Source of the DNA: an uncultured delta proteobacterium
GTDB taxonomy: Bacteria; Desulfobacterota; Syntrophia; Syntrophales; Smithellaceae
DNA length: 64,000 nt
NCBI GenBank assembly: GCA_963753975.1
Contig: CAVWEH010000006.1
Location: 10,703 to 74,702 of the forward strand
Direction: 5' to 3'
Part shown: one piece after another, positions 23,679-56,492 of the stretch
Layout of the letters: each line of letters begins with the position of its first letter
Numbering within the stretch: position 1 is the stretch's first letter
The notes under the pieces: generated by a model
The model's input: only the letters and a program-made list of their open reading frames with translations
Database searches by the model: none
What the model was told of the DNA's origin: nothing
Position numbers and translations under genes: made by a program

Positions 23679-23713
23679 ATGCTGCTTATAATTGATTTGA
23701 CGACATTATTCAA

Positions 23714-25486: not shown

Positions 25487-25491
25487 GAATG

Positions 25492-26460: not shown

Positions 26461-26501
26461 ATTATTCCCTCCTTTATTTCCCTGAGCATTAACGGCTATC
26501 C

Positions 26502-27068: not shown

Positions 27069-27181
27069 TTTATTTTGATTCTCCTATAATATTTTAATCA
27101 GCTAATATCGTCACGGGGTAAATCCGGAAATATTTGATAGGCACTGTCCCAATTATTTCCAGGGGAGCATGATGGGTGTAC

Positions 27182-28291: not shown

Positions 28292-28300
28292 TTTATCTCC

Positions 28301-28738: not shown

Positions 28739-28851
28739 GATTTTCTCCTTTCTTAATAAACATGGGACTGCTTCACCTGCAACTCAACAACAATGGTGAA
28801 TAAAATATTTTGAGGATTTGTGTTTGAAATGTTTGATCAAAAACGTTCTAC

Positions 28852-31338: not shown

Positions 31339-31397
31339 TGTATTATTTATTCAGGAAATTTTAAGTCTCTTGAGTTAAAGTCGTCAGCGTTAGTTTT

Positions 31398-31488
31398 TAA
31401 CAAGACGTTGCTTGTTCTTGAACGAACTATAAAACTGTCATTATCGTATGTCAATTGAATATTGGCCGCAAAATTTGAGGGGTCGAAG
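31398..31488 (-). mobile_element. Promoter-bearing repeat (oriIS-like end) upstream of STAND gene
   Basis: TTGACA(31449-54)-17-TATAGT(31426-31); ATTTTGCGGCCAATATT upstream. Confidence 0.7.
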
Positions 31489-31545
31489 ATCGAAATTCGC
31501 CATGACCGCCTAACGCGTTTTGTCAATAAGCTCGTCAACGGTACC

Positions 31546-31622
31546 GAAATATTAGGGACAGCGCTCTGTTTTCGGACAAGATTATTTCAACATTGGATAT
31601 GAGGGAACATCGTCCCTAACTA
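31546..31622. repeat. REP-like palindrome, family B
   Basis: ATTAGGGACAGCGCTCTGTTT ... CGTCCCTAAC. Confidence 0.55.
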
Positions 31623-31737
31623 CCCGATTTCGTCACGCAGTTATATTCATCCAGCCGTTTAAGCATAGCCGCTATACTGCTTTCAACCATGGCAATGCTT
31701 GTATCAGCCGCGCGAGACACTCACACAGAGAGAAAAA

Positions 31738-31989
31738 TTAGGCTTTCTTGATCAACCTCAATAGAAACAGCAATACCATCGCTCCGATCAGTGCCATCAC
31801 CAGTGTACCGAGGATGCCGCCCAGTGAGATACCGAGTAGACTGAATAACCAGCCTCCCAACAGAGCGCCGATCACCCCGACAACCAAATCCCCCACCAGG
31901 CCAAACCCACCGCCCTTCATGATGCGACCGGCAAGCCAACCTGCCGCAAGTCCAATTACCAGAAACAGTATCAAGCTTTGTGTATCCAT
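31738..31989 (-). CDS. GlsB/YeaQ/YmgE transglycosylase-associated small membrane protein
   Basis: IGLAAGWLAG...GVIGALLGGWLF...GAMVLLFLLR. Confidence 0.9.
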   Translation of the reverse strand: MDTQSLILFLVIGLAAGWLAGRIMKGGGFGLVGDLVVGVIGALLGGWLFSLLGISLGGILGTLVMALIGAMVLLFLLRLIKKA

Positions 31990-32093
31990 CTTTTTGTCTC
32001 CTTATCGAAGTTTAGATTCCGTGTCATTATGCACGGTTAATCTTCGTGGTCGAATTGCTTGCACCCAACAACTGGTATCCTATTCCCTGCCGC

Positions 32094-33638
32094 TTAGCGG
32101 AAAACCGGCGGTAGGTGTTGCAGATAATCCTTGCCGCTTACGGCACCCGCACACATAAATGCAGAGTGGGCAGCTCCCTCAATGCCGCCTTCGTTGATGC
32201 GCTTCCCGTAGGTATCACCGGCGAAATACAATCCTTCAATAGTGGGGCATTTCACATCCACCCATTCATCTTCCGGGTGCCGCCAAAGGATGCAGGTATC
32301 TCCCACGGTAAACAGCATCCATTCCACCGATTTTCGCCAGCCTTTAAAGGCGCTATCGACAAATTTCAACATCCGGTCAATCACGATATTCACCTTCTTC
32401 TTATCGTGGGCTTCGCTATCCAGAATACTGCTGGCCATTCCCATCAGGTGTTTGCCTTCCGGCGCGGAAGTCGGCGCGATAGCCGACATAGCAATAATGT
32501 CCAGCGGCACATTGCCCCGGAAAAGCCCTTCGCTCTCGGGAATCAGCATGGAAGTATGGTAGAAAGACCGGGGGTCTACTTTGAGTTCGCAGAATTCATG
32601 CAGAGGTTTGGTCATGCCTATCTGGGCGGCAACCATCGATGTATGAATTATCTTTTTAGTTAAGCTGACGAAATCCGGCGGCAGTAAATTCTCCGGAATG
32701 AGTTTCAGCAAAACTTTTGGCGGCAGAGTGCAGATTACAGTCGGGGATTTTATTTCCACCGTTTTGCCTTCGATTTCAGCTACCACACCAACCGCCTTGC
32801 CGTTCTGAATCATAACCTCTTTCACCGGAGCATTGGTAACAACGTCTCCGCCGTTATCTTTGACCACTGTCGCAAAACCTTCGGTAATGAAACGATGCCC
32901 GGGCGATCCGGCGAAGGCCCAGGAGCCATTGGTTATATGCACCCTCGTATCCTGAACCTGCAGAAATACTTTCATGTTCTCGCCTGCGGAATTCAGCGCC
33001 GGATCGTTAATGATTGTCTGGAAAGTCCCCATGGCATAGTGGAATTCCTGCGCCAGTTCATTTTTCGTTATCCCTTCCACCCAATCTTTCAAGGTCACAT
33101 GATCTAATTTTTCCGCATCCGCTATTGTGTGCAGTTGCAGTTTGCGTTTATGGACTTTCACCATCTCCGCGTAATCTTCATCGCTCATCCAGCCGTATTT
33201 GTCCCTCCGGCCGAGGATGTAAGGTTTCCAATCGTGGTCGTACCAGACAAAGCCTTCATTGGGATAGAAAATCGAAGCCTTGTTAAACACCGCCAGGGCC
33301 TGGCTTACGCGCCCCCGGTTGGTAAACCAGGCGCCGCGCCCGCCGGCTTCGAGAACGTAACCATCCAGCATTTTCTTTTTTATCAGGGTCTCAAGGTTCG
33401 GCTCTGTCTTATCGCTGACCCAGGAATGGGCCGATTGCGCCAGCGTCTTGCGAAATTGGTCGGCGTCTGTAATAGCTTCGCCGCGGAATGATGTTGCCCT
33501 TCCCCCAATCTGCGATGAAGCCTCGAGGATGAGAACCTTCTTACGATCCATTTTTGATAATAGAGCTCCGACAGCTGAACCGGCTATCCCGCAGCCGATT
33601 ATAATAACATCGTAGTTACTGGAAATTCTTGCAGTCAT
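32094..33638 (-). CDS. FAD-dependent oxidoreductase (phytoene dehydrogenase-like)
   Basis: DVIIIGCGIAG, ILEASSQIGGR, GLYFAGD. Confidence 0.85.
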   Translation of the reverse strand: MTARISSNYDVIIIGCGIAGSAVGALLSKMDRKKVLILEASSQIGGRATSFRGEAITDADQFRKTLAQSAHSWVSDKTEPNLETLIKKKMLDGYVLEAGGRGAWFTNRGRVSQALAVFNKASIFYPNEGFVWYDHDWKPYILGRRDKYGWMSDEDYAEMVKVHKRKLQLHTIADAEKLDHVTLKDWVEGITKNELAQEFHYAMGTFQTIINDPALNSAGENMKVFLQVQDTRVHITNGSWAFAGSPGHRFITEGFATVVKDNGGDVVTNAPVKEVMIQNGKAVGVVAEIEGKTVEIKSPTVICTLPPKVLLKLIPENLLPPDFVSLTKKIIHTSMVAAQIGMTKPLHEFCELKVDPRSFYHTSMLIPESEGLFRGNVPLDIIAMSAIAPTSAPEGKHLMGMASSILDSEAHDKKKVNIVIDRMLKFVDSAFKGWRKSVEWMLFTVGDTCILWRHPEDEWVDVKCPTIEGLYFAGDTYGKRINEGGIEGAAHSAFMCAGAVSGKDYLQHLPPVFR

Positions 33639-33687
33639 CTTTCCTCCAAATTTTTTGTCCGGCCTTTTGGCCCAATTTCATTGGCCT

Positions 33688-33765
33688 TTGATAAGACTTT
33701 GCCTGTCCCTAAAGAAACTATAAAATTGTCGGTCTTGTATGTCAATGAAATATAGACCGCAAAAT
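33688..33765 (-). mobile_element. Promoter-bearing repeat (oriIS-like end) upstream of FAD oxidoreductase
   Basis: TTGACA-17-TATAGT; 33716-33746 identical to 52648-52678. Confidence 0.75.
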
Positions 33766-33850
33766 GTGAGAGGTATGGTGTCGATGAAAAAGAAAGGGAG
33801 ATGTCGCGACATCCATTTTTATGAGAAATTCGCGTGAAAGGGGAAAACAA

Positions 33851-33875
33851 ATAGGCGGGTGTAATTCCCGCCTAT
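33851..33875 (-). terminator. Terminator after SWIB gene
   Basis: ATAGGCGGG-loop-CCCGCCTAT with T-rich tail on minus strand. Confidence 0.65.
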
Positions 33876-33898
33876 CTGGAAAAAACAATTATACTTTT

Positions 33899-34228
33899 TT
33901 AGGACTCGATATTGGCGCTGATAACACATGCCATTTGCATCATATCGATGGTCTGGCCCTCTTGTAACTTTGTGAAATCAGTCACTTTGCCGGTCTTACT
34001 TTTGATTTTGGTGTTGTTGAATATTTTAATCAATTTGGCATCAGCCACGATGTTCTTACCGGCGTTTTCCGGTTTACCATTGACCGTTTTTGTTTGCAGT
34101 TTGTTCTTTTTGATATAATCCCATATTTTTTTGGTTATCTCCGTGCGCGGAAGAGCGCCGGCACCCAATAATGCCGCCAAGTCCGCTTTCAATTTTACCG
34201 GTTTGTCCAATCCTTTTGCTTCTGCCAT
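33899..34228 (-). CDS. SWIB/MDM2 domain protein
   Basis: LAALLG...PRTEITKKIWDYIKKNKLQ...IVADAKL. Confidence 0.9.
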   Translation of the reverse strand: MAEAKGLDKPVKLKADLAALLGAGALPRTEITKKIWDYIKKNKLQTKTVNGKPENAGKNIVADAKLIKIFNNTKIKSKTGKVTDFTKLQEGQTIDMMQMACVISANIES

Positions 34229-34272
34229 GGCTTATGCCTCCATTCTTTAATTTAAATTGATTTAGTATTTTT

Positions 34273-34391
34273 TGATCAGATATTGCGGGGGGAGTATAAG
34301 AACTTTCCGTTTTGTATGTCAAGGAAATATTGACCGCAAAATACGGGGTGCGAAGGGAATACCCGAGAGCTTGCCCATTGGCTCCGACCCC
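34273..34391 (-). mobile_element. Promoter-bearing repeat plus GGGGT/ACCCC hairpin upstream of SWIB gene
   Basis: TTGACA-18-TATACT; GTCAA-N7-TTGACCGCAAAAT; hairpin 34345-34391. Confidence 0.7.
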
Positions 34392-34446
34392 TCGCAAAAC
34401 AGCTCACATACATCAAAAACCAATTGGCGTAAAAAAACTATTGCGA

Positions 34447-34896
34447 TCAACCCCTCACAATAAGTATGGGAATCTTTGTATCATTGTGAATAACACCATA
34501 GGAAACACTACCGAGGACTGTGGCTGATAAGGCACTCCTTCCATGGGAGCCCATAACAATAAGATTTGCCTTCGACCTCTTTGCTTCTTTCACAATCTCC
34601 TCCACGGGATGCCCCATCTTTATAGAAATCTTCGATGCGACACCGCTTTTATCGCAGAGTTTCTTTATTTCTTCGGCATATCCATCGGCAGCCTCTCTCA
34701 GATAATCCTCAATCGGCTCTATTGCGTGCCTTGCTGTCTCCGCTGCGGGAACTGTCCGGGCTACCAGTGAGCGCTTATCAATAACGCTCAGGGCAATAAT
34801 TGAGGCCTTCAACTGTTTGGCGAGGTCAACCGCATACGCGGCTGCTCTTTGAGCTGTTTTGGAGCCGTCTGACGGCACAAGAATATTGGAAATCAC
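34447..34896 (-). CDS. Universal stress protein
   Basis: ILVPSDGS, GHPVEEI, LIVMGSHGRS...LGSVS; GTG start after GGAGG. Confidence 0.92.
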   Translation of the reverse strand: MISNILVPSDGSKTAQRAAAYAVDLAKQLKASIIALSVIDKRSLVARTVPAAETARHAIEPIEDYLREAADGYAEEIKKLCDKSGVASKISIKMGHPVEEIVKEAKRSKANLIVMGSHGRSALSATVLGSVSYGVIHNDTKIPILIVRG

Positions 34897-34942
34897 ACAT
34901 CCTCCTTTAATCATGAAAAAAGGGTAAAGCAGTATGCTCTGA

Positions 34943-35035
34943 TTGACAAGAACTTTCTTTTTCGCTGCGAGTATATGAAGAAGGATTTTGTGTGTCAAGA
35001 TGATTTTGACCACCTCCAGATATGGGGTTCGGGAG
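34943..35035 (-). mobile_element. Promoter-bearing repeat upstream of usp
   Basis: TTGACA(34993-98)-17-TATACT(34970-75); GTCAA-N7-TTGAC. Confidence 0.65.
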
Positions 35036-35606
35036 TTTTTCCTTTTAAAAAATAATTGCGCCCATCTGAACTGACAAGTAGGTTTAAGTAACTATTTTGT
35101 CATTTGAAAAACATTTTAATTGTCATATAGTAAGCCATGGCATGTAAAAGATAAATGATAAAAAGATAAGTTTACACCTAATAACACAAAAGCATCAACC
35201 GATTGAATAATTAATTACAGAGATATTATGATGTTTTATGAATTAATGATTGTTAACTTTATCCGGAAATTAGCTGGTTGCTGCAATTTATAGAAAATTA
35301 TCAAAAAACGTTCTATCGAAAATGTTATATTGAAAGAGCTTAAATTTGCATTGGATGCATTTGTATTTGCATTAATTGGTCAATTACTTATAATTATTTT
35401 AATGACTATTGGTGAAATATTTCTTAGATAGAGAAATAAAATATTAACAATGGGGCGCTGTCTCTAATCGCAGATCAATTTCATTTTGCTTCGCATTTTC
35501 TGCGTATATTAGGTCAGGCGAACCAGACAAAGAAAACGCATCCGGCAAATGAACAATTACCGGCTATAGCTCCGGCTTGCCATATGTAGTAAGGAGACCC
35601 GAAAGA

Positions 35607-38600
35607 GTGAAGTTAATCGACAAGACAGTTTTGGAACCATTGCTGAGATTGAAGAAACAAACGCTCGGCGGAGCTTTCGGAAGAAAGTACTCCTACGATG
35701 AATTACCTCTGCGATCGGAATTGCTCAGCTCCGACCAGATGAAGCAGCACGGCAAAGCACTGGCGAATGTACATAAATTGACCCGCGTCAAGAGTTTCTG
35801 AACAGCTTCTGGCGCGTCTTCATGAGAATGAAGATGTGCTGATTGAAACATGCAACCAGCTGACAGATGTGGTCAAAGATAACAGCACGATAGCACCTGC
35901 CGAAGAATGGCTTCTCGATAACTTCTATTTAATTGAAGAACATATTCGCATGGCTAAAAGACACTTGTCCAAAGGCTATAGCCGGGAATTGCCGCGTCTA
36001 CAAAATGGGCCATCGGCCGGACTCCCCCGTGTCTATGATATTGCGATCGAGACCATCTCCCACGGCGATGGCCGGGTGGATATGGAAAGTCTCATTAGTT
36101 TTGTTACATCCTACCAAACGGTAACCCATCTGAAATTGGGCGAGTTGTGGGCAATTCCGATTATGCTGCGTCTGGCGCTGATCGAAAATCTGCGACGCAT
36201 TGGAACGCGAATTATTGCCGGTATTGCCGACAGGGAACGAGCCGATTACTGGGCGGACCAGATGGCCGATATTGCACGGAGAGACCCCAAAAGTCTCGTT
36301 CTGGTCATCGCGGATATGGCACGGTCCGATCAACCGATGGCCAGTTCATTTGTCGCGGAATTTGCGCGTCGTTTGCAAGGACAGAGTCCGGCCCTGGCGT
36401 TGCCTCTGACCTGGATTGAGCAGCGGCTTTCCGAGTCCCATTTGACGATTGAACAGTTGGTCCGATCCGAGAATCAGCAACAGGCCGCCGACCAGGTATC
36501 TGTAAGTAACAGCATCGGCAGCCTCCGGTTTCTGACGGCGATGAACTGGCGTGAGTTTGTGGAGACCATGAGCGTTGTCGAACAGATACTGCGTGAGGAT
36601 CCCAGTGATATCTATATCAAAATGGATTTTACAACCAGAGACCGTTATCGTCATGCCGTTGAAAAGATAGCAAAATACAGCCCCCTATCCGAAAGTGAAG
36701 TGGCGCGCCTGGCAATCGATTTATCCCGGGAAGGCTCATCAAAGCATAGCAATGGTGATCGAGAGACACATGTTGGTTTTTATCTGATCGACAAAGGATT
36801 GCCCGAACTTGAACAAAGGGCTCAGATGCGTCAAGCCCTTCTCTGAGTTTATTCGTCGAATTATCTGCAAATTTCCGTTGTTTATCTATCTTGGGACAAT
36901 AATGGTGATCACATTAATCACGGCCTTCGGCTTACTGCTAAAAGTTCAAACCGATAGTTTGCACGGTTGGATACTTGTGCCTATCGCTATTATTTTTATT
37001 CTGGGCGCAAGTAGTCTGGCCGTAGCGCTGACGAACTGGTTGGCTACGCTTCTGGCCCATCCGCATCCGCTGCCGCGTATGGACTTTTCCCTGGAAATTC
37101 CACCGGAATCAAGCACTCTGGTGGTAATCCCGACTATGCTTACGAGTGCTCAAAACGTAGAAGACCTGGTCGAATCACTGGAGATCAGATTTTTGGCTAA
37201 TCGGGATAATAACCTGCACTTTGGCTTACTTACCGATTTTTGTGATGCCCATGAAGAAACGACTTCCGAGGACGATGCGCTCCTGCGATTGGCCGAGATG
37301 CGGATTGAAGAACTCAATGATAAGTATAGAGGCACAAAAGGAGGAACTTTCTTTCTCTTCCATCGTCCACGCCGCTTGCAATCCAGAGGAACAACTTTGG
37401 ATGGGTTATGAGCGTAAACGAGGAAAGATAGCTGAGTTGAATGCTTTTCTGCGCGGTGGCGCAAAAGATAGTTTCTCTCTTATCGTCGGTATCACTGAAA
37501 TATTATCCAATGTGAAGTATGTAATTACTCTGGATACGGATACTCAACTTCCTCGCGATTCCGCACAGCAATTTGTGGGGGCTATGGCCCATCCGCTGAA
37601 TCGTCCACGTTATGATGAAGCACGGCAACGTATTTGTGACGGTTATGGCATTCTTCAGCCGCGCGTCGCAGAGAGCTTTATCGGGCGACGGCAAGTCATG
37701 GTATGCGCGACTCTGGGGAGGTGAAACCGGCATTGATCCTTATACACGCGTTGTTTCCAATATCTACCAGGATGTATTTGCTGAAGGTTCCTATATCGGC
37801 AAAGGTATTTATGATGTCGATGCGTTTGAGAAGGCCCTCGCCGGCCGCCTTCCCGAAAACCGGATACTTAGTCACGACCTCATAGAAGGTTGCTATGCGC
37901 GTTCGGGTTTGCTCTCCGATGTTCAATTATATGAGGAATATCCGTCTCAATACAGCATGGATGTGAGCCGAAGGCATCGCTGGATTCGCGGAGATTGGCA
38001 AATTGCCAGTTGGCTCCGGTCGGTCGTTCCGACCGCAGGCGGCAGTCATCAGAAAAATAAAATATCCTGGCTTTCCCAGTGGAAGATTTTCGACAACCTT
38101 AGGCGCTCTCTGGTTCCCGCGGCTCTGACCTTGATGTTAATTATGGGATGGACCATCATGTCTCCGGTTTGGCTGTGGACGATCATGGTGATCGGAATTC
38201 TTCTCATTCCTTCCGCGTGCGCAATACTTCTGGAGCTCTTCCGCAAGCCGGGAGATGTGCTATTGCGCCAGCATTTTGTCACTGCCCTGCGTCAGGCCGG
38301 AAGGAACTTTTTTCAGACTTTGTATACGCTGATTTGTCTTCCCTATGAAGCATTTTTTAGTCTGGATGCGATTGCCCGTACTCTCTGGCGAATGCTCGTT
38401 TCACACAAGCGACTGCTGGAGTGGAATCCTTCCGGAAACCAGACGAGCCATAGCAGCAATAGCCTTGCCGCTTCCTGCCGGTCGATGTGGATAGCCCCTT
38501 TTCTTTCCGCCGTGCTATTTATTTATCTCACTGCTGTCAAGACCTGGCGCTCTGAGCGCTGCTTTGCTTGTGCTGGTTCTTTGGTTTCTATCTCCCGTAA

Positions 38601-41600
38601 TTACCTGGTGGGTCAGCAGGCCTATTGTTCGTGGCGATATAAAACTGAAAGATGGGCAAATCATTTTTCTAAGAAAAATGGCCCGCAAAACCTGGGCATT
38701 CTTCGAAACATTCGTCGGGCCGGACGATCATTGGCTGCCACCTGATAACTATCAGGAGCATCCCGTTGCCGTAATTGCGCATCGCACATCGCCGACAAAC
38801 ATGGGACTGGCACTTGCTGGCAAATTTATCTGCGTATGATTTCGGTTACATTTCGGCTGGAGAATTAATCGAACGCACAGCCGATGCCTTCCAGACGATG
38901 GGGAAAATGGAACGCTATCGCGGCCACTTTTATAATTGGTACGACACTCAAAGCTTGGCCACACTCCGGCCTCATTACATATCCACTGTGGACAGCGGAA
39001 ATCTGAGCGGTCACTTATTAACATTGCGACGGGGATTTATTGATCTTCCCGATCAGAAGATTTGTGGATCTCAATTGTTTGAAGGCATCAACGACACTGC
39101 CACTGTGCCTCCTGGAGGTTGCGGGAGCGGGAGCGCCAAAACAACTTGCCGATTTTCAAAAATATCTGGTCTCATTGCCGGATCCCGGCAAAATGATGCT
39201 TACGCCTTTGCGGCAGCGCCTCGATCATCTCGCGAAGTTTTCTATTGATCTTGCCGGCGCCTTTAACGCAAACACGGAGAGTCATATCATAACGTGGGTG
39301 AAAGTTCTGGTGCATCAATGTGCCGATGCCTTAGAGGAATTTACCTTTTTTTGTCCCTGGATTACGCCTAAATACCCTTCGGCGAGGCTAAGCGAGTTTT
39401 TCGAAACTATGGAAATTCCCTCGCTATGTAAATTGATAACATTCGAAACAGAGCTGCCCCAGGTAATCGAAAATATAATCGGCACAAATACAACTGCCGA
39501 GGAGGCAGCGTGGTTTTCTGATTTTCACAGGAGAATCAAGGAAGTCTCTCAGCGGGCAAGGGAAAGAATAGCGGCAATCAACCGCCTGGTAGCACAGGCA
39601 AATGACTTTGCAGAAATGGATTACAGCTTCCTTTATGACAAAGGTCGTCAGTTGTTGACTATTGGCTATAGCACCACTGAGCGCCGCTGGGACGCAAGTT
39701 ACTATGATCTCTTGGCTTCGGAGGCCAGACTTTGCAGTTTCATAGGAATCGCACAGGGGCAGCTGCCCCAGGAGAACTGGTTTGCCCTGGGACGCCTGCT
39801 GACAAATCCGGGAAGATACCCCGTTCTTCTTTCCTGGGACGGTTCAATGTTCGAGTATCTCATGCCGCTTCTGGTGATGCCCAACTATGAAAACACACTG
39901 TTGGATCAGACGTACACGGCAGCTGTACGCAGGCAGATTGACTATGGAAAATACCGAAGGGTGCCCTGGGGCATTTCAGAATCCGGTTATAGTACAATCG
40001 ATGTCCATCTTAACTACCAGTATCGCGGCTTTGGTGTCCCGGGACTCGGTCTCAAACGAGGGCTTTCCGACGATTTGGTTGTCGCGCCATATGCTTCAGC
40101 ACTGGCGCTGATGGTCGCACCGGAAGAGGCCTGCCTGAATTTGCAGCAGCTTGCCCGGAACGGTATGGAAGGATCATATGGTTTCTATGAAGCGATAGAT
40201 TACACATCTTCACGTCTGCCTCGCGGTCAAGCGAGTGTTGTGGTCAGGTCATTTATGGCTCATCACCAGGGAATGAGTTTACTGGCTTTGGCTTATCTGT
40301 TGCTTGATCGTCCGATGCAGAAACGTTTCGAGTCGGATCCGATGTTTCAATCGACAATGCTGCTGCTGCAGGAACGCATTCCCAGGGCTGTGGCGTTCTA
40401 TCGGCAAATCGCCGAGGATACTACCATTCGCAAGACTGCGTTAGGTGAGAAGGCCCCGGCTCGCATATTTAAAACTCCGAATACACCCGTACCGGAGGTA
40501 CAATTATTGTCCAATGGAAGATACCATGTGATGCTCACCAATGCCGGAGGTGGATATAGCCGCTTTCAGGATTTGGCCGTTACGCGCTGGCGCGAAGACT
40601 CTACCCGCGACAATTGGGGAACATTTTGTTACATTCGTGACGTGATCAGCGGAGAGTTCTGGTCAACAGCATATCAGCCGACACTAAAACAGCCGGAAAG
40701 ATATGAAGCTATTTTCTCTCGACGCCAGGGTTGAGTTTCGGCGTCGGGATAATGAAATCAACACACACACGGAGATAGCCGTATCTCCTGAGGATGATAT
40801 TGAACTACGACGCATACGTATTACCAACCGTTCACGAAGGCTCAGAGAGATAGATATAACCAGTTATGCGGAAATTGTTCTGGCGGCACCTGCGGCCGAC
40901 GCGTTGCATCCGGCGTTTTCCAATCTTTTTGTTCAAACGGAAATCATCCGCGAGCGCCAGACGATTCTCTGCACCAGAAGGCCCCGTTCAAAAGGTGAAC
41001 CTGCGCACTGGATGTTTCACCTGATGGCATTGCACGGGACGGAGAATAAGGAAGTATCCTATGAAACGGATCGTTTAAAGTTTATCGGTCGTGGAAATAC
41101 TTTGGCTAATCCGCAGGCGATGAATTGTCTCCGCGGCTATTTCAGAAGCACTTTCGAATACTGAAGGTTCCGTTCTAGATCCCATTGTGGCTATACGTTG
41201 CCGCGTTAAGTTGGATGCGGGAGAATCGGTCACGATTGATATTGTTTCCGGTATCAGTGAAACACGAGATCATGCGCTTAGTCTTGCCGAAAAATATTCC
41301 GATCAACGTCTTGCCGATCGTGTTTTTAATCTGGCCTGGACCCATAGCCAGGTGGTTCTTGCGGCAAATCAATGCCACGGAAGCCGACGCCCAACTTTAT
41401 GGGCGCCTGGCAGGTTCTGTAATTTACAGCAATTCATCGCTGCGCGCTGATCCGAAGATCATTCATAAAAAACCGTCGCGGACAATCGGGTTTATGGGGT
41501 TACGCCATTTCCGGAGATTTGCCCATTGTACTGCTTCAGATCGGCGACCATGCCAATATCGAACTTGTGCGCCAACTCGAACAGGCCCACGCGTACTGGC

Positions 41601-44366: not shown

Positions 44367-44401
44367 AGGTGATCAAATATTTACGACCTGGAGCGGTTCC
44401 T

Positions 44402-44526
44402 ATGCCAGTTCTAAATCAAAGATGATATCGCGGCGGTAAGGAGGAGGCGACGAGACGTATTTTACATACGTTGAGGAAGCCGACGACGAAGCCAACAAAG
44501 ATAGCGCTTTGATTTCGAATTGGCAT
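44402..44526. mobile_element. MITE-like element between convergent cgs and pfkA
   Basis: 20-bp TIRs ATGCCAGTTCTAAATCAAAG / CTTTGATTTCGAATTGGCAT (18/20 match). Confidence 0.7.
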
Positions 44527-45629
44527 TATAGGATGGTTCTGCGTCCGTTATACCTTTCCGTATCGTAATACTTTTCTACATCCACCAAGTTTAATTTATT
44601 GATAACTTCTTTCAGGGGTACGCCGGTAATTTCTCCGCGCGAAAGAGAAACCATGCGTCCGAAATCCTCTTTGATAATCATGTCCACAGCGGCAATGCCG
44701 AACCATCTGGCCATCAGGCGATCGTGGGCGGAAGGTGATCCGCCGCGCTGGAGATGGCTCAGGATTATGTGGCGTGATTCAAACCCGGTTTTGCGTTCAA
44801 TTTCAGTGGCGACGTAACTGGCAATTCCGCCAATCGACTCATGCCCGAAATCGTCTAAATGACTATCCTTGGTAAATTCCCGCCCTCCTGCGGGCCTGGC
44901 CGCTTCGGCAACCACAATAATGGAATAGTTGATTTCACGACCGTGCCTCTGGCGCAAAAGTTCACATACACGTTCCATCTCGAAAGGACATTCCGGTATC
45001 AAAATAATATACGCTCCGCTGCATTCTCCACCGTGGAGAGCAAGCCAGCCGGCATGGCGTCCCATTGTTTCCACAACAAAAATACGGCCATGGGAACCGG
45101 CGGTTGTTCTCAGCCGGTCGATTTCTTCCATAATGACGTTAACCGCAGTATCAAAGCCGAGCGAATATTCAGTTCCCATAAGATCGTTGTCGATTGTCTT
45201 GGGGATACCCACTGTTTTGATACCCAGCTTATGTAATTTATAAGCGACACCCAGAGTATCTTCGCCGCCGATGACAACAAGCGCGTCAATTCCTAACTTT
45301 TTGATGTTATCAATTAGCTTCGCCGAACGGTCATTTTGGGGATTAAACGGATTTGTCCGTGATGTTCCCAGGTTTGTTCCTCCGTAACGATCCCATGTCC
45401 GGACGACCTCTTCGTCTAAATGTTTGATATACTTCTCGCAGCTTTTCGGATCGTCGGGATCAACCTCGATGATGCCCTTCCAGCCCTGAGTAATGCCAAG
45501 AACTTCAAATGAAATAGTACGATTTCCCGCAATTCTTGGATCAACTGCGCTTTTCGTTATCCACTTGATCGCGCCATTGAGTCCCGGGCAATCTCCTCCG
45601 CCTGTTAATATGGCTATTTTCATTTTCAT
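44526..45629 (-). CDS. pfkA: 6-phosphofructokinase (PfkA family)
   Basis: ILTGGGDCPGLNG, GGTNLGTSR, IGGEDT, PKTIDND, ETMGRHAGW. Confidence 0.93.
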   Translation of the reverse strand: MKMKIAILTGGGDCPGLNGAIKWITKSAVDPRIAGNRTISFEVLGITQGWKGIIEVDPDDPKSCEKYIKHLDEEVVRTWDRYGGTNLGTSRTNPFNPQNDRSAKLIDNIKKLGIDALVVIGGEDTLGVAYKLHKLGIKTVGIPKTIDNDLMGTEYSLGFDTAVNVIMEEIDRLRTTAGSHGRIFVVETMGRHAGWLALHGGECSGAYIILIPECPFEMERVCELLRQRHGREINYSIIVVAEAARPAGGREFTKDSHLDDFGHESIGGIASYVATEIERKTGFESRHIILSHLQRGGSPSAHDRLMARWFGIAAVDMIIKEDFGRMVSLSRGEITGVPLKEVINKLNLVDVEKYYDTERYNGRRTIL

Positions 45630-45842
45630 AATTTTCTTCCCTCCCTGCGTTCTGGGAATTTGGGTCTCATTACAATATCGTCCCACTTAGCTTCGCACGT
45701 GGGATAATTTCCGATAGCCACCGGCTATTGATACCACTGTATGCTTTGCATACAGGATAATTCCATTTGCGCTTCAAATTTCGTTTCACTCATTTTCAGC
45801 GAATGTCATTAATTCGGCTAACAAACTTCTATTCGCTTCGCT

Positions 45843-45970
45843 TTGCTGTGTTTTTTGCCTTGTCAGGTCAATGCTGACGTCATCGAAAAACTGAACGTTC
45901 AAGATGTAGCTCTGACCTTTGATACCTGTGAAACCACAACTCCTTCGCACTTCGATGATAAGATCCTGTC
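45843..45970 (+). pseudogene. Fragment resembling a polysaccharide deacetylase N-terminus
   Basis: DVALTFDTCETTTPSHFDDKIL, then abrupt switch to unrelated sequence. Confidence 0.45.
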
Positions 45971-46087
45971 ATGTATTTCAGCTTTCAGAGCCCCGGACGC
46001 TTTAATGCTTCCCCCGGGCAAAGTGTGGTGTCGATTTCAAGCTGCCGGGTTCAGCATTTCTCCTTCGACCAGAGGCATATCGAAAGG

Positions 46088-47119
46088 TTAAAAATCATTG
46101 ATCGAATCAATAAGATTTCTGAGCCTGCCGAAATCCCTGCGGTTAAAATCTATCACCAGTCGCGGCAGATGAATAAGATCCTCATCATCCATTTCAGCTT
46201 TCAAAGCCCCGGACGCTGTGATACTTCCCCCGGGCAAAAGGATGTCATGAAACTGATCTGTCAGCTTCCCGATATCATCGGGGCTGAGCTCAGATGTGAG
46301 CCGGATCACCAGTTGGCCATGCACATACCGGATGCTGTGATAGCGGCGATAGAAATGCTGAATCTTCTCCACCGCATCATCCACGGAGCATACTCTTTCA
46401 AAGAGCGCAAAGTCCGACGGGCAAATATAGTTGCGAGCCAGTAGCTCTTCCTCGAAGAGCTTGATCATGTGGGACCAGTATGAACATTCCGGATCATCCA
46501 CGAGCACAAGCGGCATGGGATTGCGTTTGCCGGTTTGCAGCAGGGTGAGCGTCTCCATCGCCTCATCGAGCGTGCCGAAACCGCCCGGAAAGAGCGCCAC
46601 GGCGTCAGCTTCTTTAAGGAAGGCAACTTTGCGGTTGAAAAAATATTTGTACGTGATGAACCGCGGGTTGCCCTCGATCACGGCATTCGGCTTCTGCTCG
46701 AACGGCAAGCGGATGTTCACACCGAAGGAATGCTCGGAACCGGCTCCCTCGTTGACGGCCTGCATGATGCCTTCTCCCCCGCCGGTGATGACCATGTAAC
46801 CCGCCTCAGCGAGCTTTTTCCCGAAGAGCTTTGCCATCTCGTATAGCGGATCGCCCGGCTGGGTACGCGCCGAGCCGAAGACCGTGACCTTGCGAACGTT
46901 CTGGTAGGGGCCGAAGACCTTGGAAGTAAATCGCATCTCCTTGAGCGTCGTGTTCATGAGCTTGAGGTCCGCGCTCTCGTCATCCTCCTGCCCGGCTTTG
47001 AGCGAGGCGATAATCATTTCGCGGACGTATTTTGGCCTCCGGATTCCCTCGGCGGTCTCCATCAATTGGTCGATAATCTCGTCGATGGGGCCGTTATCTT
47101 TGTCGAAATAAATTTTCAT
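46088..47119 (-). CDS. LOG family protein (TIGR00730-like nucleotide phosphoribohydrolase)
   Basis: VTVFGSART, ITGGGEGIMQA, FKYFFNRK-like, PGGFGTLDE. Confidence 0.92.
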   Translation of the reverse strand: MKIYFDKDNGPIDEIIDQLMETAEGIRRPKYVREMIIASLKAGQEDDESADLKLMNTTLKEMRFTSKVFGPYQNVRKVTVFGSARTQPGDPLYEMAKLFGKKLAEAGYMVITGGGEGIMQAVNEGAGSEHSFGVNIRLPFEQKPNAVIEGNPRFITYKYFFNRKVAFLKEADAVALFPGGFGTLDEAMETLTLLQTGKRNPMPLVLVDDPECSYWSHMIKLFEEELLARNYICPSDFALFERVCSVDDAVEKIQHFYRRYHSIRYVHGQLVIRLTSELSPDDIGKLTDQFHDILLPGGSITASGALKAEMDDEDLIHLPRLVIDFNRRDFGRLRNLIDSINDF

Positions 47120-47443
47120 AACTTCTCTCCGTTTTCCTACCTGCACTGCTGAAATGATTGTTATAAAGTAAGCATTCTATTGTTCATTGTCGAGAAAGAT
47201 GAAGGATTTTGTCTTACGCTGGCAGTTCACTTTCTTCATGTTAATTTCATCATCCGGTAATAATAATGTAACAATAAAAGAGATAATATCAATCCCTGCC
47301 GGACGATGTTATTTCCCTCATCCATTGTCATTATAAGTGAGTATCGTTCGACAGCGTCCGCCGAACCATCAGGACCGTTGACTGCATAACTGCCTTAGGT
47401 CTGACAGTACGACGGTATAAGTAAGAAAAAATGGAGGTTATTT

Positions 47444-48310
47444 ATGAATGCACTGGCATTACAGGAGATGCCGCAGATACAAAAAGAGCGTGTAATCGGC
47501 GAGATATTAGTGAGCCCCTATCGTCTGTTGCTCGACGAATTCGAACCCAAAATAAGGATTAATATTGAGCGGGATGATTATATTATCAAAACTGCCGAAA
47601 CCGGCGCCGAACTGGAAGAAACGCTCCGCCTCCGGCACGATGTTTTTTATAAGGAGCTCATCGGGAAGAAACTTCCCTATGAAATTGACATTGACCGCTT
47701 CGATACCCGTTGTGACCACCTGATTCTTGTCGATCGGAAGACGGAGGACATCGTCGGCACCTACCGGCTGATCGCCAGCACCTTTTCCCCGGATTTCTAC
47801 TCCGAAGGCGAATTCGATCTTTATGACATCAAACGTCTGGACGGCGTCAAGCTCGAATTGGGAAGAGCCTGTATCGAAAAGGGCTACCGGAACGGACAGA
47901 CCATCGTGCTGCTCTGGCAGGGATTGAATGAATATATGAATAAAATCCAGGCGAAATATCTCTTCGGCTGTGCGAGCGTTAAAACCACTGATTCCATAAA
48001 AATCGCGGTATTGCAGCGCTACGTCCAACAATACCACTATACCCAACCGCACATCCGTGTGACGCCAAATAAGAAATATCGTATAAAGGATCTCGCACAT
48101 ATCGTCAGCGTTCTCGAGCAGAACACCGCAAACGAAAAAAAGACGGCGAGGCTTATCCCGAACCTCCTCAACTCCTATCTGGCGCTCGGCGCTCTGATAT
48201 GCGGAGAGCCGGCCTACGATCCTGAGTTCAAGTGTATGGATTACCTGACCATCCTCGATGTAGAGGCGATGAACCAGCGCTATCTCAACAAACTGTTAAG
48301 TACTTGTTAA
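47444..48310 (+). CDS. GNAT N-acyltransferase, OlsB (ornithine lipid) family
   Basis: LRLRHDVFY, DIDRFD..CDHL, VGTYRL, FYSEGEFD, LELGRAC, YLFGCAS, PAYDPEF. Confidence 0.8.
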   Translation: MNALALQEMPQIQKERVIGEILVSPYRLLLDEFEPKIRINIERDDYIIKTAETGAELEETLRLRHDVFYKELIGKKLPYEIDIDRFDTRCDHLILVDRKTEDIVGTYRLIASTFSPDFYSEGEFDLYDIKRLDGVKLELGRACIEKGYRNGQTIVLLWQGLNEYMNKIQAKYLFGCASVKTTDSIKIAVLQRYVQQYHYTQPHIRVTPNKKYRIKDLAHIVSVLEQNTANEKKTARLIPNLLNSYLALGALICGEPAYDPEFKCMDYLTILDVEAMNQRYLNKLLSTC

Positions 48311-48349
48311 TGCACGGCAATCACGAGCACCAGGAAAAAGGTACTGATC

Positions 48350-49375
48350 ATGCGCAATTTTTTTAATGCCTTGCGCTTTATTATCGGTTGTCGGTTTCCT
48401 TGCGATGAGAATATCGACGTGTTCAATATCGTGCTGCCGATAGGCGGGGATTTCCTGAATGCCTTTGTTTATCAAAAGGCGGACGGCAAGTCCCGAGGGG
48501 CCATCCTGGCCATTCACGGCATGTCAGCGCAGGGAAATCGTGATCCCCGGTTTGTAACAGTTTGTAAAGCTCTGGCACATTGCGGGTATATAATCGTCTC
48601 TCCCTTATACCCCGATATCGAGGGATTCCTGATTAAAGAGGAAACTGTGTACGTGATCGCCAAAACTATTCAGAGTCTCGCGGAAAATGCAACCCTCTGC
48701 CCTTCAGGAAAGATTTCCATCTTTGCTCCTTCCTTTTCGGCCGGCCTCGCTATCATTGCCGCTTCCAGACCGGAAACAAGGGAACTGGTGAGAGCCATCT
48801 GTGCGATTGGAACCTACAGCAATGTAGAAACGTCGGTGGAATTTCTCCTGTCCGAGCAGGATAATGACGAATATGCGCGACTTATTATCCTGCGCAATTT
48901 TATGCATCATTCGATTGGCCCAAGCAACGATCTCTCTCACGCTTTGCGTGTTGCCATCCTCGACAATGGGAATTGTCGAGAGAACCCGGAACTCCCTCAA
49001 CTCCTCCGCACACTACCGCGCAACGTGCGACGAATATTTACCCGACTGCAGAGAGAATCTTCCTATCGCTGGTATCACTGGAAGAGGATTTGCTCCCCAG
49101 CGAAGGGTGTTAACGACATGTTGAAACGACTATCAACAGTGTCAACAATCGATTCGTTGAAAGCGGCAGTCGCCCTGGTTCATGGAGCCGACGACCGGGT
49201 AATCCCGCCCACAGAATCGGTTATCCTGCACCGCCGTTTGCAGGAGGAAAATAAGCTCTCCAGACTTTCACTCACCCCGGCGATCTCCCACGGAGATACC
49301 ACCCTGACTGCAAGCATGATCCCCGCACTCTTCGACTTGGCCGGCACTTTCGCGTTTTTCTTCAAACACGCCTGA
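48350..49375 (+). CDS. Alpha/beta hydrolase fold protein
   Basis: LAIHG, nucleophile elbow APSFSAG, LVHGADDRVIP, late His (ISHGD). Confidence 0.7.
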   Translation: MRNFFNALRFIIGCRFPCDENIDVFNIVLPIGGDFLNAFVYQKADGKSRGAILAIHGMSAQGNRDPRFVTVCKALAHCGYIIVSPLYPDIEGFLIKEETVYVIAKTIQSLAENATLCPSGKISIFAPSFSAGLAIIAASRPETRELVRAICAIGTYSNVETSVEFLLSEQDNDEYARLIILRNFMHHSIGPSNDLSHALRVAILDNGNCRENPELPQLLRTLPRNVRRIFTRLQRESSYRWYHWKRICSPAKGVNDMLKRLSTVSTIDSLKAAVALVHGADDRVIPPTESVILHRRLQEENKLSRLSLTPAISHGDTTLTASMIPALFDLAGTFAFFFKHA

Positions 49376-49498
49376 TTGTTCCATAGCCGTCGCGGGTATA
49401 TCCGCGAGCTCACTTTTTTCGCGATATTTTTGCCGGATTGTAACAGTGACTTAACAAAAAAATGCTAACACGAGACACCGTTTTTTGTATAAGAATAT

Positions 49499-51241
49499 AT
49501 GTTCTCTGAAAGGAATAAATATATTATGATAAGAAAACCAGTTCGCTTCAAAAAGATATATGCGGCAACTGCTATTTTAGCGTTGCTATTAGCATCTTCT
49601 GTGGGAATCTGCGGCAGTTCATCGTCTTATGCCGCGTCTGATGTCCATGCGTCATCTACAGCCTGGAGCTTTGGCGTTATGGGCGATACCCAGTGGACAC
49701 TCGCTACCGACCCTGCCGGCAATAATCCCAACGGCGTTTCCGCATCGATTATTGACCAGATAAACCAACAGTTCATCAGCAAAGGCGTGAAGTTCGTCAT
49801 TCAGGTTGGTGATTTAACCGAGAACGGCAATGATGCCGCCATCGCCTCGCGCGCCGTCGCCGCGCAGGTGCTCTACAATGCAGGCATAGGATTTTTTCCC
49901 ATGCGCGGCAACCACGAAACGTCCGCCAAACCAGCCAACGGCTATGCCATTGCGGCATTCCGAACCAACTTCCCACAAACGCAGTGCTTGAGCAAAACGT
50001 TCGGAGCCACCAACTGCAGCAGTCCTTCCTCGGTCAGCAGTGATCTTACCGGCATGAGCTACTCTTTCGATTACGGTTCGACGGGCAATAATGCCCGTTT
50101 CGTCATTATCGATGATTGGGCGACGCCGAGCAAAAGAGTTGACGCCGCCGACTATCCATACGGTTATTCCATCTCCGATCAGCAGTCTTGGATTAGCAGT
50201 CGCCTGGACAAGAACACTCGCAACGTCCGGCATGCCTTTGTCTTCTCCCACCAACCCTTTATAGCCGAGAACCACCAGGATTCTCTTTTTAGCGGCTATA
50301 CGAACGCGAACCCGGACATGCAAAACGTCTTCTTCGCCAGCTTGCAGAATAATAACGTCAGGTATTACATCAGCGGTCACGACCACATTCACCAGCGGTC
50401 CATCATCGTAAGCCCCGACGGCATTTCGAGAATTCAGGAACTCATCAGCGCCTCCGCCAGCAGTAAGTTCTACACGCCCAAGGATCTGATTGACACCAAA
50501 TGGTATGGGCAGAAGTCGCGTGAGACTTCCGTGTCCCAGGAATTGTATACGGTCGGTTACTATATATTCACTATCGATGGCCCTCGCGTGACTGTCGATT
50601 ACTACTCCGACGACCACGGCGGCTGGCTGTCAGACGAAAACTATCCGGCTGCGACCAATAACGGCTTCACTAATAAGGTCACACCTGCCTTCAATTTCGT
50701 AAAGAAGGCGACCTGGGGTTATAGCCTGAATGGCAGGGAATTTCTTGTCGGCGGAACCAATGGTACTTCCTATACTGTGGTTCGGGACAACTGCGGTAAT
50801 ACATCGGCAAATATTCTTGCCGGTACTTACAGCAACAACGTCAAGGACTACAACGGCCGCGTTCTCGCTCAGACCGTGGACACCGGCTGGTCACCCGGGC
50901 CGGCGGGCACACTAAGTAACATCCTTACACTCTGGGGCATGACCAGCGCCATGGGCAGCAATCAGAGCGACATGTATACGCTCTCCATGAGTTATGACCC
51001 CAAGAGTGTGAATACTACGAAGGCAAAAAAAGGGTTTATCGGTTTAGCCACCCTAAGTGCCAATGGCAAGTGGGTTAACGCCGTATCCAAGAATATCGGC
51101 GGCACCCCGAGGTTCGTTTACGGCAAATGGAAATCCGGCTATGGTTTGGGCACATACGGCATCGACACCGGCACGAACACCGTTTGGGCGGTCCTAAATT
51201 ATAACGGTAATTTTGTCGTCGCTCCCGGATATGAACATTAG
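49499..51241 (+). CDS. Secreted calcineurin-like metallophosphoesterase
   Basis: Signal peptide; GDTQ, QVGDL, RGNHE, FSHQP, SGHDH. Confidence 0.88.
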   Translation: MFSERNKYIMIRKPVRFKKIYAATAILALLLASSVGICGSSSSYAASDVHASSTAWSFGVMGDTQWTLATDPAGNNPNGVSASIIDQINQQFISKGVKFVIQVGDLTENGNDAAIASRAVAAQVLYNAGIGFFPMRGNHETSAKPANGYAIAAFRTNFPQTQCLSKTFGATNCSSPSSVSSDLTGMSYSFDYGSTGNNARFVIIDDWATPSKRVDAADYPYGYSISDQQSWISSRLDKNTRNVRHAFVFSHQPFIAENHQDSLFSGYTNANPDMQNVFFASLQNNNVRYYISGHDHIHQRSIIVSPDGISRIQELISASASSKFYTPKDLIDTKWYGQKSRETSVSQELYTVGYYIFTIDGPRVTVDYYSDDHGGWLSDENYPAATNNGFTNKVTPAFNFVKKATWGYSLNGREFLVGGTNGTSYTVVRDNCGNTSANILAGTYSNNVKDYNGRVLAQTVDTGWSPGPAGTLSNILTLWGMTSAMGSNQSDMYTLSMSYDPKSVNTTKAKKGFIGLATLSANGKWVNAVSKNIGGTPRFVYGKWKSGYGLGTYGIDTGTNTVWAVLNYNGNFVVAPGYEH

Positions 51242-51280
51242 GCAACAATGGTTCTGATCCTCAGGCAAAGAGAAGCCTAA

Positions 51281-51359
51281 TGATAAAGTATTGCTTTTTC
51301 CACGATTGAACTCTTGAGGAATATCGGTCCTGTAAGCAATTAAATATTAGCCGCAAAAT
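51281..51359 (-). mobile_element. Degenerate promoter-bearing repeat copy
   Basis: TCGGTCCTGTAAGCAATTAAATATTAGCCGCAAAAT aligns with the family; -35 and -10 both mutated. Confidence 0.6.
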
Positions 51360-51404
51360 ATAAGCTGAGGTATAGATGAGGCAGAAAGGGAATGTAACCA
51401 GCGG

Positions 51405-51794
51405 TCATTCCCTGTTTTCACTATGGTCGTCAGATTCTAAGATGAATGGCAAGCGATTGGCAACAAAGAAAAGTACAAAGGATATAAAAAAGCTAATACC
51501 GGCTACCGTGAAGGCGAGTGATTTTCCATGCCATAATCCCACAAACCAGCGACTGAAATCATCCGCAAAGAGCGCCGCCTTTCCGCCATATAGTTCCAAA
51601 TCGCGCCTGTACGTCCGGGAATCTTCAGGCCTAAGCGGATAAGCAGATCCATTTATTATTTCGTAACCCAAAACACTGCCCGAATCGTCCCCGGCTGACT
51701 GATAAATCAAGATAGCAATACCCAAACCAGCCACCATGATAATGGCGCCTATGAAGATAAGGCTTTCTTGCAGATCTGCGACTTTCCGTTTCAT
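51405..51794 (-). CDS. Small two-TM membrane protein
   Basis: Two hydrophobic segments flanking Y.R.LELYGGK...WHGKSLA. Confidence 0.7.
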   Translation of the reverse strand: MKRKVADLQESLIFIGAIIMVAGLGIAILIYQSAGDDSGSVLGYEIINGSAYPLRPEDSRTYRRDLELYGGKAALFADDFSRWFVGLWHGKSLAFTVAGISFFISFVLFFVANRLPFILESDDHSENRE

Positions 51795-51804
51795 AGCAGT
51801 TTTG

Positions 51805-52554
51805 TTAATTTGCGGCGTGGGCCTTCCCGACGTACCCGGGATCAAAGTTCGCCATGATCGCCCGACGCGTTTTGTCGATTAGCTCTTGAACGGTTTCGGC
51901 GGTATAGCCGCTGGTATCGATGGGGTCCCCGATGACGACCTGGATCTTTCCCGGTTTCACCACGAGGCTTCCCTTGGGCAAAACGCGCCTACTTCCATTG
52001 ACGGTAACCGGCAGGATAGGGATCTTGCGCGCGATGGCTGCCATGAATCCCCCTTTTTTGAATTCGTGAATCTGCCCGTCGGGCGATCTGGTCCCTTCGG
52101 CAAACACCATTACGCCCGCATCTTTGGGCAGCCGATCCATGCCCTTGTTAATGCTCTCGATTGCCCTGGCGGTATTCACGCGGTCGATAAAGATGTTCCT
52201 GGAGGCGTAGAGCGCGTATCCGAAAATCGGGATTTTGAGAACTTCCTTTTTAATGAACCAGCGAAATTGAATGCCCAGCGTGGTGACCACCGCCAGGATG
52301 TCGAAGAGCGACTGGTGGTTGGAAATAATGATATAGGATCTACCCTTCAGAATCTTCGCTCTGTTTTTTATTTCCGTACGGACAAAGGATACGGCCAGCA
52401 TGGTGTAGGCCCAGAGCTTCGAAATGGAGAACGCTAGATTGCCGGTACGGCTCATGAGGCCCGCAACCATGACGGGAATGCCCAGGATAATGGTCGCCAC
52501 TGCCGCCCATAAAGCAAGCCACGCAACACGGATTGCCCTGAATAGTGATCTCAT
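51805..52554 (-). CDS. Lysophospholipid acyltransferase (PlsC family)
   Basis: NHQSLFD, FIDR, FAEGTRS. Confidence 0.93.
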   Translation of the reverse strand: MRSLFRAIRVAWLALWAAVATIILGIPVMVAGLMSRTGNLAFSISKLWAYTMLAVSFVRTEIKNRAKILKGRSYIIISNHQSLFDILAVVTTLGIQFRWFIKKEVLKIPIFGYALYASRNIFIDRVNTARAIESINKGMDRLPKDAGVMVFAEGTRSPDGQIHEFKKGGFMAAIARKIPILPVTVNGSRRVLPKGSLVVKPGKIQVVIGDPIDTSGYTAETVQELIDKTRRAIMANFDPGYVGKAHAAN

Positions 52555-52623
52555 AGCATAGCTTCCTTTTATTATTTTATTCCATCACAAAAAATAGGTT
52601 CGTGTTACCTTGAGGTGCTCCCT

Positions 52624-52697
52624 TAAGAGATTGCTTGTTCATGATGGAACTATAAAATTGTCGGTCTTGTATGTCAATTAAATATTGACCGCAAATT
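52624..52697 (-). mobile_element. Promoter-bearing repeat (oriIS-like end) upstream of plsC
   Basis: TTGACA(52672-77)-17-TATAGT(52649-54); GTCAA-TTAAATA-TTGAC. Confidence 0.75.
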
Positions 52698-52943
52698 TTA
52701 ATTAAATGCTTTGAACAATATTTACTTTAGAAACACCTCTTTAAGTCCCTCCTCTCGCCAATCACAATATCAATAGATAACGGCTACCAATATCCGCCTA
52801 TTAAATTATCATTGCCCGCTTGGTTCTTATGTAGTAATCAACGCATAAGACTATGGCATTCTTCTGCAAGTGATAAAAATGCTTATTCTTTCCATTGTTT
52901 ATTTTTTATGGGTGTATCAATATCTGATTATGAGGTAAAAGAA

Positions 52944-54155: not shown

Positions 54156-54196
54156 ACAACGCGTGCAAGATTCAACATCTACAAGATGGAGGAATA

Positions 54197-55150: not shown

Positions 55151-55282
55151 TGCATCCCGACCAATAATCCAAAATTCGAAGCGGGAATATAGTTAAAGAA
55201 AATAGCCGCAAGCTTTTTGCAAAACGAAAGAGAAAGATTTGGCAGGTGCCCTTGATGGCCGGCACCGTAAGTGGTCTTCTTT

Positions 55283-56483: not shown

Positions 56484-56492
56484 GGCTTCTCC

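Follow-up and report, generated by a model that had tools for sequence, protein, structure and literature searches.

Why should a set of related sequences, all on one strand, stand in front of genes that share no common function? This question is raised by a stretch of 64,000 nucleotides from an uncultured member of the Smithellaceae (contig CAVWEH010000006.1 of assembly GCA_963753975.1), hereafter called the window. An earlier note had described seven such stretches on its minus strand and had guessed that they are orphan oriIS ends of IS91/ISCR-like elements. All seven have been found where they had been placed, the 31-bp identity between the copies at 33716-33746 and 52648-52678 is real, with 30 of its bases also present in a third copy elsewhere in the genome (C2:714433), and six downstream genes had been named correctly, their starts lying about 25-70 bp past the element end. 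The comparisons reported here cover the source genome (G000; 2.43 Mb, 95% complete), relatives of the same family (other G numbers) and fetched loci (L numbers). They indicate that the repeats are almost certainly oriIS (right) ends, derived from a rolling-circle element of the IS91 family and ISCR type that belongs to Smithella/Syntrophales, and that those facing co-oriented genes have probably been domesticated as promoters.

The oriIS guess is supported by relatives, in which a profile derived from G000 matches directly 3' of an IS91-family (ISCR-type, Y2) transposase gene. Three of the first seven Y2 loci from relatives carry the element downstream of the gene (E 5e-16, 4e-12 and 8e-11). 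Using one such transposase as query, 79 loci were fetched, of which 64 reach the transposase C-terminus; the terminal motif occurs 168-277 bp past the transposase stop in 48 of these 64, and a model built from the G000 copies only matches the 3' flank in 27 of the 47 loci with at least 330 bp of flank. The transposase passes the cut-offs of NF033538 (180 bits against 125), PF04986 and PF14319 and falls below that of NF052416 (144.7 bits against 925), so it is not a member of ISCR clade Ia; the record titles of its closest relatives are mostly Smithella and Syntrophaceae. The parent layout comprises a 450-amino-acid Y2 HUH transposase followed by about 230 bp with a palindrome, an outward promoter (consensus TTGACA-17/18-TATA(C/G)T) and the terminal motif TCTTATCAA. 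The subterminal palindrome, CCACA-(3 nt)-TGTGG-like, is matched at 10 or more of 13 positions in 26/43 parents and 15/35 orphans. Ends identical to those of L040, L042 and L071 are followed by unrelated 3' flanks, so that the end is sharp and invariant. The description of the copies as non-autonomous also stands, as G000 has no Y2 transposase (no PF04986 match, and none by protein search); its only transposase traces are two scraps of about 70 bp, and no Y1/RAYT transposase has been found in it. Across the family genomes the transposase query gives 191 matches in 72 genomes, mostly fragments, with many broken genes.

Window copies match transposase-linked ends at 72-82% over 77-101 aligned bases, and each consists of the right end only. 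They are read as follows:

3541..3598, minus strand: promoter and end only, ahead of IMP cyclohydrolase; 14.8 bits on the model of transposase-linked ends (parents only)
31396..31481, minus strand: orphan oriIS end ahead of a low-GC HNH-STAND-HEAT gene; terminal motif decayed; 61/85 bases match L075
33687..33820, minus strand: orphan oriIS end with a long parent-like arm, ahead of the FAD oxidoreductase gene; terminal motif intact; -35 box at 33745-33740, -10 box at 33722-33717; 62/81 bases match the transposase-linked end L075
34271..34351, minus strand: orphan oriIS end, the SWIB gene's predicted promoter; 8-bp deletion before the end, terminal motif mutated; 65/80 bases match L075; kept family-wide
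34942..35026, minus strand: orphan oriIS end ahead of usp; 67/82 bases match L104
51281..51377, minus strand: dead copy, -35 box broken (TTGCTT), no -10 box; faces a convergent metallophosphoesterase gene
52624..52700, minus strand: orphan oriIS end ahead of plsC; terminal motif decayed; 61/77 bases match L075

Several copies extend further upstream than had been noted, the copy at 33688 being parent-like to about 33820 by eye. When positions 28000-36000 were scanned for sigma70-like sites, the best four (11/12 matches) were exactly the four element copies. The least certain family member is 3541..3598, which may be an end domesticated long ago or else a native promoter that resembles one. Outside the window, about 800 bp to its left (G000 C6:9898, plus strand), there is an eighth copy; its end is intact, and it precedes the gene whose 3' part opens the window. 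A paralogous end-plus-usp unit is present at G000 C5:275287.

The whole-genome profile search that had been proposed as a check shows that the family extends well beyond the window. A model (R1) built from 32 transposase-linked ends and the seven window copies gives 44 matches in G000 at E ≤ 1e-3 and 50 at E ≤ 0.01, while a profile of 21 genome copies has no match at E ≤ 5 in the reversed genome. All 116 family genomes searched match R1, with at least 3137 matches in all when up to 34 candidates per genome are scored, a ceiling that many of them reach. In the phylum, 31 of 141 genomes match at E ≤ 1e-5 and 110 are without a match; because only these 31 match, R1 is not simply reporting promoters. 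A metagenome scan with an exact pattern has returned at least 129 matches (128 metagenome, 1 viral), and among the 129 listed there are 61 orphans, 31 transposase-linked ends and 37 too near a contig end, the one listed match on a viral contig lying at the contig end. Orphan lengths form a continuum with a median of 72 bp.

Ready-made expression had been proposed as the function of these ends, and the copies do bear a signature of selection as promoters, as far as sequence can tell: the boxes are kept, the end has decayed and orientation is biased. For this comparison 35 G000 orphans were taken, a subset of the R1 matches with 15 weak promoter-only matches left out. TTGAC is intact in 33/35 orphans and 37/43 parents, and the -10 pattern in 31/35 and 36/43, respectively, whereas the terminal CTTATC remains in 9/35 orphans against 37/43 parents (p 6e-8). 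A co-oriented gene is faced by 32 of the 35 orphans (background 0.57, p 9e-6), and the three that face none all have broken promoters. Among the metagenome matches, a co-oriented open reading frame follows 25/30 orphans, 11/17 transposase-linked ends and 9/20 ends near contig starts.

Two regulatory-looking motifs have been observed around these promoters. A GAAC-N4-GTTC palindrome lies in the spacer of 29 of 46 transposase promoters (L039-L117), and the same box, which we take to be of the SOS type (LexA), overlaps the promoter of a LexA-like S24 peptidase gene at G000 C4:154326 (L410); none of the 10 genome matches to the box lies before recA. These observations suggest that the transposase may be under SOS control. 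The palindrome upstream of the -35 box (33755-33770 in the window, and in the same place in other copies) resembles what we assume to be the NrdR box consensus, and two NrdR-like boxes, 31 bp apart, lie upstream of nrdD (G000 C2:677884).

The copies differ in how firmly they are tied to their genes. An end lies upstream of SWIB orthologues in 25 of 30 loci (by score), with different DNA further upstream, and 11 of the 23 testable IMP cyclohydrolase loci (G000 included) score at least 12, with the end in the same place across the family. For plsC an end is found upstream of only 7 of 29 orthologues, as different variants. Comparison of orthologues thus dates some copies as apparently old, fixed before SWIB and IMP cyclohydrolase across the family. 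The fixed copies at SWIB and IMP cyclohydrolase weigh against a purely portable nature of the elements, for which positions conserved before orthologues had been named in the earlier note as counter-evidence. On the SWIB gene tree, promoter presence shows no more clustering than expected by chance (3 changes; 3.9 when shuffled), so that no claim is made on horizontal transfer of the SWIB promoter. The IMP cyclohydrolase gene itself (window 2787-3518, minus strand) is found in 97 of 116 family genomes; with the query used it was not found in G002, G005, G006, G010, G011 and G013, which are 58-98% complete.

How short, transposase-less ends could arise is indicated by the extents of full elements. 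No common terIS is seen, the DNA upstream of the transposase promoter differing between elements. On pIAE1, a finished plasmid of Trichlorobacter lovleyi (NZ_CP058410.1), a related element (55% identical) occurs as 11 identical copies, laid out as in the Smithella type with the promoter followed by the terminal motif. These copies have one 3' end, and their 5' extents, besides the reference copy, are 462, 1677 (three), 1678 (two), 1806 (two), 2838 and 3422 bp. In three of them the last 22-37 bases of the copy are duplicated right after the end, and among Smithella-type ends exact repeats of the element's own suffix follow 51 of 166, against 1.2 (maximum 7) in 500 shuffles. Telomere-like arrays of 4-37 bp suffix units have been observed at L040, L055, L056, L083, L084, L105 and L119, as well as at plasmid loci L370, L374 and L382. 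The 3-4 terminal bases recur in the terminal duplications, being copied as part of the end, and they are inherited as variants (on the plasmid, TCCT 7 and TGAC 4), and the first base past the end is T59/A48/C33/G26. Comparison of loci also reveals a pattern of one-ended mobilisation, with common 5' junctions and upstream cargo and different downstream DNA (L056/L058; L372/L373 and L374/L375). These comparisons suggest that the nick at which copying begins is fixed and that the distance at which it ends varies, so that very short products would exist. Deletion of full elements may also give orphans, and either route could account for the old window copies. Elsewhere on the same plasmid (L384:32793-41523), a cluster for reductive dehalogenase, like many single genes, is flanked on both sides by related IS91-family copies.

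Gene order around the ends was compared in the zone between uvrB and uvrC, for which two further features are needed:

21630..59455, no strand: uvrB-uvrC plasticity zone; gene order differs among G000, G002, G005, G006, G010, G011 and G013
33760..34345, minus strand: SWIB cassette, comprising the promoter half of the upstream end, the SWIB/MDM2-domain gene (33899-34228), its 3' region and the arm of the next end

These seven close relatives (G000 included) have overlapping gene sets in different orders, with the ends nearly all in one orientation and between single genes. Of the broken junctions, 26/88 hold an end and 5/88 a second repeat, which is described below, while 0/38 conserved junctions hold either. 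The DNA upstream of SWIB differs in each of the seven genomes, homology beginning about 21-30 bp before the -35 box; at the end that follows SWIB, the upstream arm is kept, and the promoter half and next gene change. The 33687..33820 copy illustrates this in the relatives compared, its arm travelling with the SWIB 3' region and its promoter half with FAD oxidoreductase. Most downstream arms stop between +10 and +30 relative to the -35 box, and a few reach the true end, +58 to +61; in G013 a SWIB-type promoter is joined to the arm that belongs to the dead 51281 copy. As mapped on these alignments, most crossovers appear to fall within the core that the copies share, close to the -35 box. Since it is upstream DNA that rolling-circle copying takes along, a gene downstream of an oriIS is an insertion neighbour rather than cargo. 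The proposed integron-like capture accordingly survives in that genes are shuffled at the ends, and is weakened in that the downstream gene is a neighbour and in that most crossovers fall inside the core, a position that favours recombination between copies over capture at the end.

A course of events may be proposed on this basis. An element with a fixed 3' end and no fixed terIS would yield copies that reach from a few bases to kilobases upstream, as comparison shows. Short products, together with trimmed remnants, would leave transposase-less ends of about 60-240 bp; those before co-oriented genes would be kept as promoters while the nick motif decays, a step with statistical support, and the transposase itself would have been lost from G000. 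In plasticity zones, as observed, single genes are separated by ends of one orientation, and gene order is altered at these ends. Most swaps could be recombination between copies in the 40-bp core from the palindrome to the -35 box, a gene moving with its own promoter half, and a minority could be one-ended transpositions that break at the very end. As a whole, the combination of oriIS ends, kept promoters and shuffling is the best explanation and a likely one; that homology-driven exchange is the main route of shuffling is only somewhat favoured.

Several observations weigh against this account. Neither an oriIS end nor a second repeat is held by 57 of the 88 broken junctions; two conserved junctions with an end (G005/G010) were missed by the count at contig ends, and the genomes compared are kin, so that p-values overstate. 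The core, at 40 bp and about 80-90% alike between copies (by eye), is short for RecA-type recombination, and no clean empty insertion site was obtained from the relatives compared. The short orphans could have been left by deletion instead of being short products of transposition, which for most genomic fragments of IS801 is the view of its authors (PMC3189936). Promoter activity is predicted from sequence, and box conservation is partly built in, as the search models weight the promoter boxes; this bias inflates the box comparison but should not create the orientation bias.

Of the other explanations, a shared operator-promoter of co-regulated host genes, unrelated to mobile DNA, would fit the copies fixed before SWIB and IMP cyclohydrolase orthologues, as well as the NrdR-box likeness of the palindrome and the two such boxes before nrdD. 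The same sequence is, however, the terminus of active transposons, the downstream genes lack a common function, the plsC end is restricted to a few genomes as different variants and most genomes of the phylum are without a match; a host regulon is thus highly improbable and, as an origin, largely refuted already. Rather unlikely, with better grounds, is that full elements have simply decayed to inert promoter ends which mark regions unstable for other reasons, such as horizontal transfer hot spots. The two transposase scraps in G000, the many broken transposase genes in the family, the continuum of orphan lengths and the majority of broken junctions without an element all agree with decay, but breakpoints inside the element, with one copy's arm on another's promoter (G013 against G000), do not. 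Nor do the plasmid's 100%-identical 5'-truncated copies and terminal duplications, which show short products arising directly, or the 30-31-bp identity of three G000 copies before different genes, which suggests recent exchange.

Doubtful to a similar degree is an integrase-free, site-specific cassette system in which the Y2 transposase or another enzyme cuts or exchanges at the subterminal palindrome, the ends being recombination sites with a promoter. Six of six close-relative SWIB cassettes are SWIB-type up to the palindrome, and the FAD oxidoreductase cassette to at least -11, which places seven crossovers within about -30..-11 (all by eye); the ends lie in one orientation between single genes, and subterminal palindromes are also described in the oriIS of IS91 and IS801 (PMC13181058). 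Against this, the crossover interval is also among the best-conserved homology and promoter selection could mimic the pattern, the events at SWIB depend on one another, conservation of the palindrome is lower in orphans than in parents and G000 has no Y2 transposase. A broader version may be entertained tentatively: a Smithella-type integrase-free cassette system derived from domesticated ends, with genes carrying their own promoters, exchange at the palindrome (possibly by the Y2 transposase), the second repeat as a companion junction, and abortive rolling-circle starts that seed ends and grow telomere-like arrays. Overall, the identity of the repeats is firm and the promoter role likely on these comparisons, while shuffling may possibly proceed by either recombination or a site-specific cut.

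The second repeat is about 90 bp long, with two 15-bp palindromes fixed 47 bp apart, which often enclose an extended -10 promoter, and it ends in a TAATCAAT-like motif resembling the oriIS end. About 36 copies occur in G000, and it is present in 98 of 116 family genomes (0 to at least 36 each), mostly between tandem genes. Its places in G000 are as follows:

C1:80162-85151, C2:435315-441224, C2:714501-716564 and about 25 others: second repeat

The window holds one weak trace near 61870 (E 0.19), and among the metagenome matches listed 8 of 61 orphans have the second repeat fused in front of the oriIS end. A role as terIS would find little support in its position, since no more than 4 of 45 transposase genes have it upstream. 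An attC-like hairpin was rejected, no consistent fold being obtained, as was a site of a nearby integrase, the tested enzyme being phage-type and not IntI; a likeness to dif/XerCD, weak by eye against the consensus, was dropped. No common cognate enzyme was found among the 45 of 82 neighbouring proteins scanned, which include one phage integrase and one relaxase-domain protein. Another kind of palindromic repeat lies between the second repeat and the oriIS arm at L148, L210, L211 and L323.

Other features of the window have also been recorded. The HNH-nSTAND1-HEAT gene at 28852-31338 (minus strand), of about 33% GC and behind an oriIS end, may be a defence gene that was acquired. At 35577-44366 (plus strand), a gene of the GH94/glycoamylase kind that resembles cyclic beta-glucan synthase is broken into about ten frames, its G013 counterpart being a single open reading frame of 2876 amino acids; the split reflects either a pseudogene or indel errors. 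The uvrB gene (57562-59455) is frameshifted in appearance. Rfam and tRNA scans of the window gave no match. In two DNA sequencing runs, loose ends fall inside elements, at 33731 and 34969, and a single weak joint (26 letters) is seen; none of these was used as evidence.

These findings suggest that, in the manner of long terminal repeats (LTRs) in eukaryotes, one transposon end may have been the source of promoters, by the dozen, for a whole family of bacteria, and that the same leftover ends may let genes change place with their own promoter, without an integrase. From terminal suffix duplications and variable 5' ends, the starting and stopping of ISCR-type elements can be read off directly and tested, and the finished T. 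lovleyi plasmid is a tractable model. Each single part has a precedent; in the literature searched, with most subscription papers outside it, no report was found of orphan oriIS promoters on a genome-wide scale, of cassette shuffling inside the ends or of terminal suffix arrays.

The zone resembles an integron in its single genes of one orientation, separated by repeats and varying in order between relatives, and differs in that each unit has its own promoter and the repeat is a transposon end. attC sites are characterised by a GTTRRRY core and a stable single-strand hairpin. Such a core is absent from the oriIS ends and the second repeat, and folding z-scores range from +1.5 to -2.5 over 15 strands, inconsistently between copies; of the five PF00589 matches in G000, the one that was scanned reaches 55.6 bits on TIGR02249 (IntI), against a cut-off of 265. 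Unlike MITEs, the window copies have neither both parent ends nor terminal inverted repeats, only the right end.

Closer parallels lie within the IS91 family. IS91 has an external target tetranucleotide (PMC13181058); the present element differs from IS91, IS801 and IS1294 in lacking a CTTG/GTTC-type tetranucleotide outside oriIS, the last 3-4 bases being copied with the end, and in lacking a defined palindromic terIS. Right-end miniatures of IS801 (229, 360 and 679 nt), attributed to premature rolling-circle termination and proposed by the authors as recombination regions (PMC3189936), are likewise transposase-less, but their starts are at set tetranucleotides and few of them are seen in genomes (2/17 fragments; PMC3189936), whereas here the 5' ends have no motif in common, and the fragments, the smallest of which are a few bases long, number in the dozens and have conserved promoters. 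One-ended transposition with tandem duplication has been described (PMC5737581, PMC13023784). In the ISCR28 "sandwich" a gene between two oriIS ends can be moved (cited in PMC12772301); here many breakpoints lie in the shared core and neither flank has a transposase. ISCR1, with its outward promoters PCR1-1 and PCR1-2, shares the IS91-type Y2 transposase, the oriIS region of about 230 bp past the gene, the outward promoter, the variable co-oriented genes downstream and the lack of a working terIS (PMC6218425). Its promoters lie on full elements beside class 1 integrons (PMC6218425), whereas here orphan ends, 40-50 per chromosome, precede housekeeping and accessory genes; in 2026 it was still called elusive how ISCR elements contribute to the spread of resistance genes (PMC13181058). 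An instance of promoter fixation by an insertion sequence remnant, the ISAba125 end before aphA-6, is similarly a transposon end kept because it drives the next gene (PMC9330008), but it belongs to single resistance-gene cases, while here the source is family-wide and serves at least 32 genes in one genome as predicted promoters.

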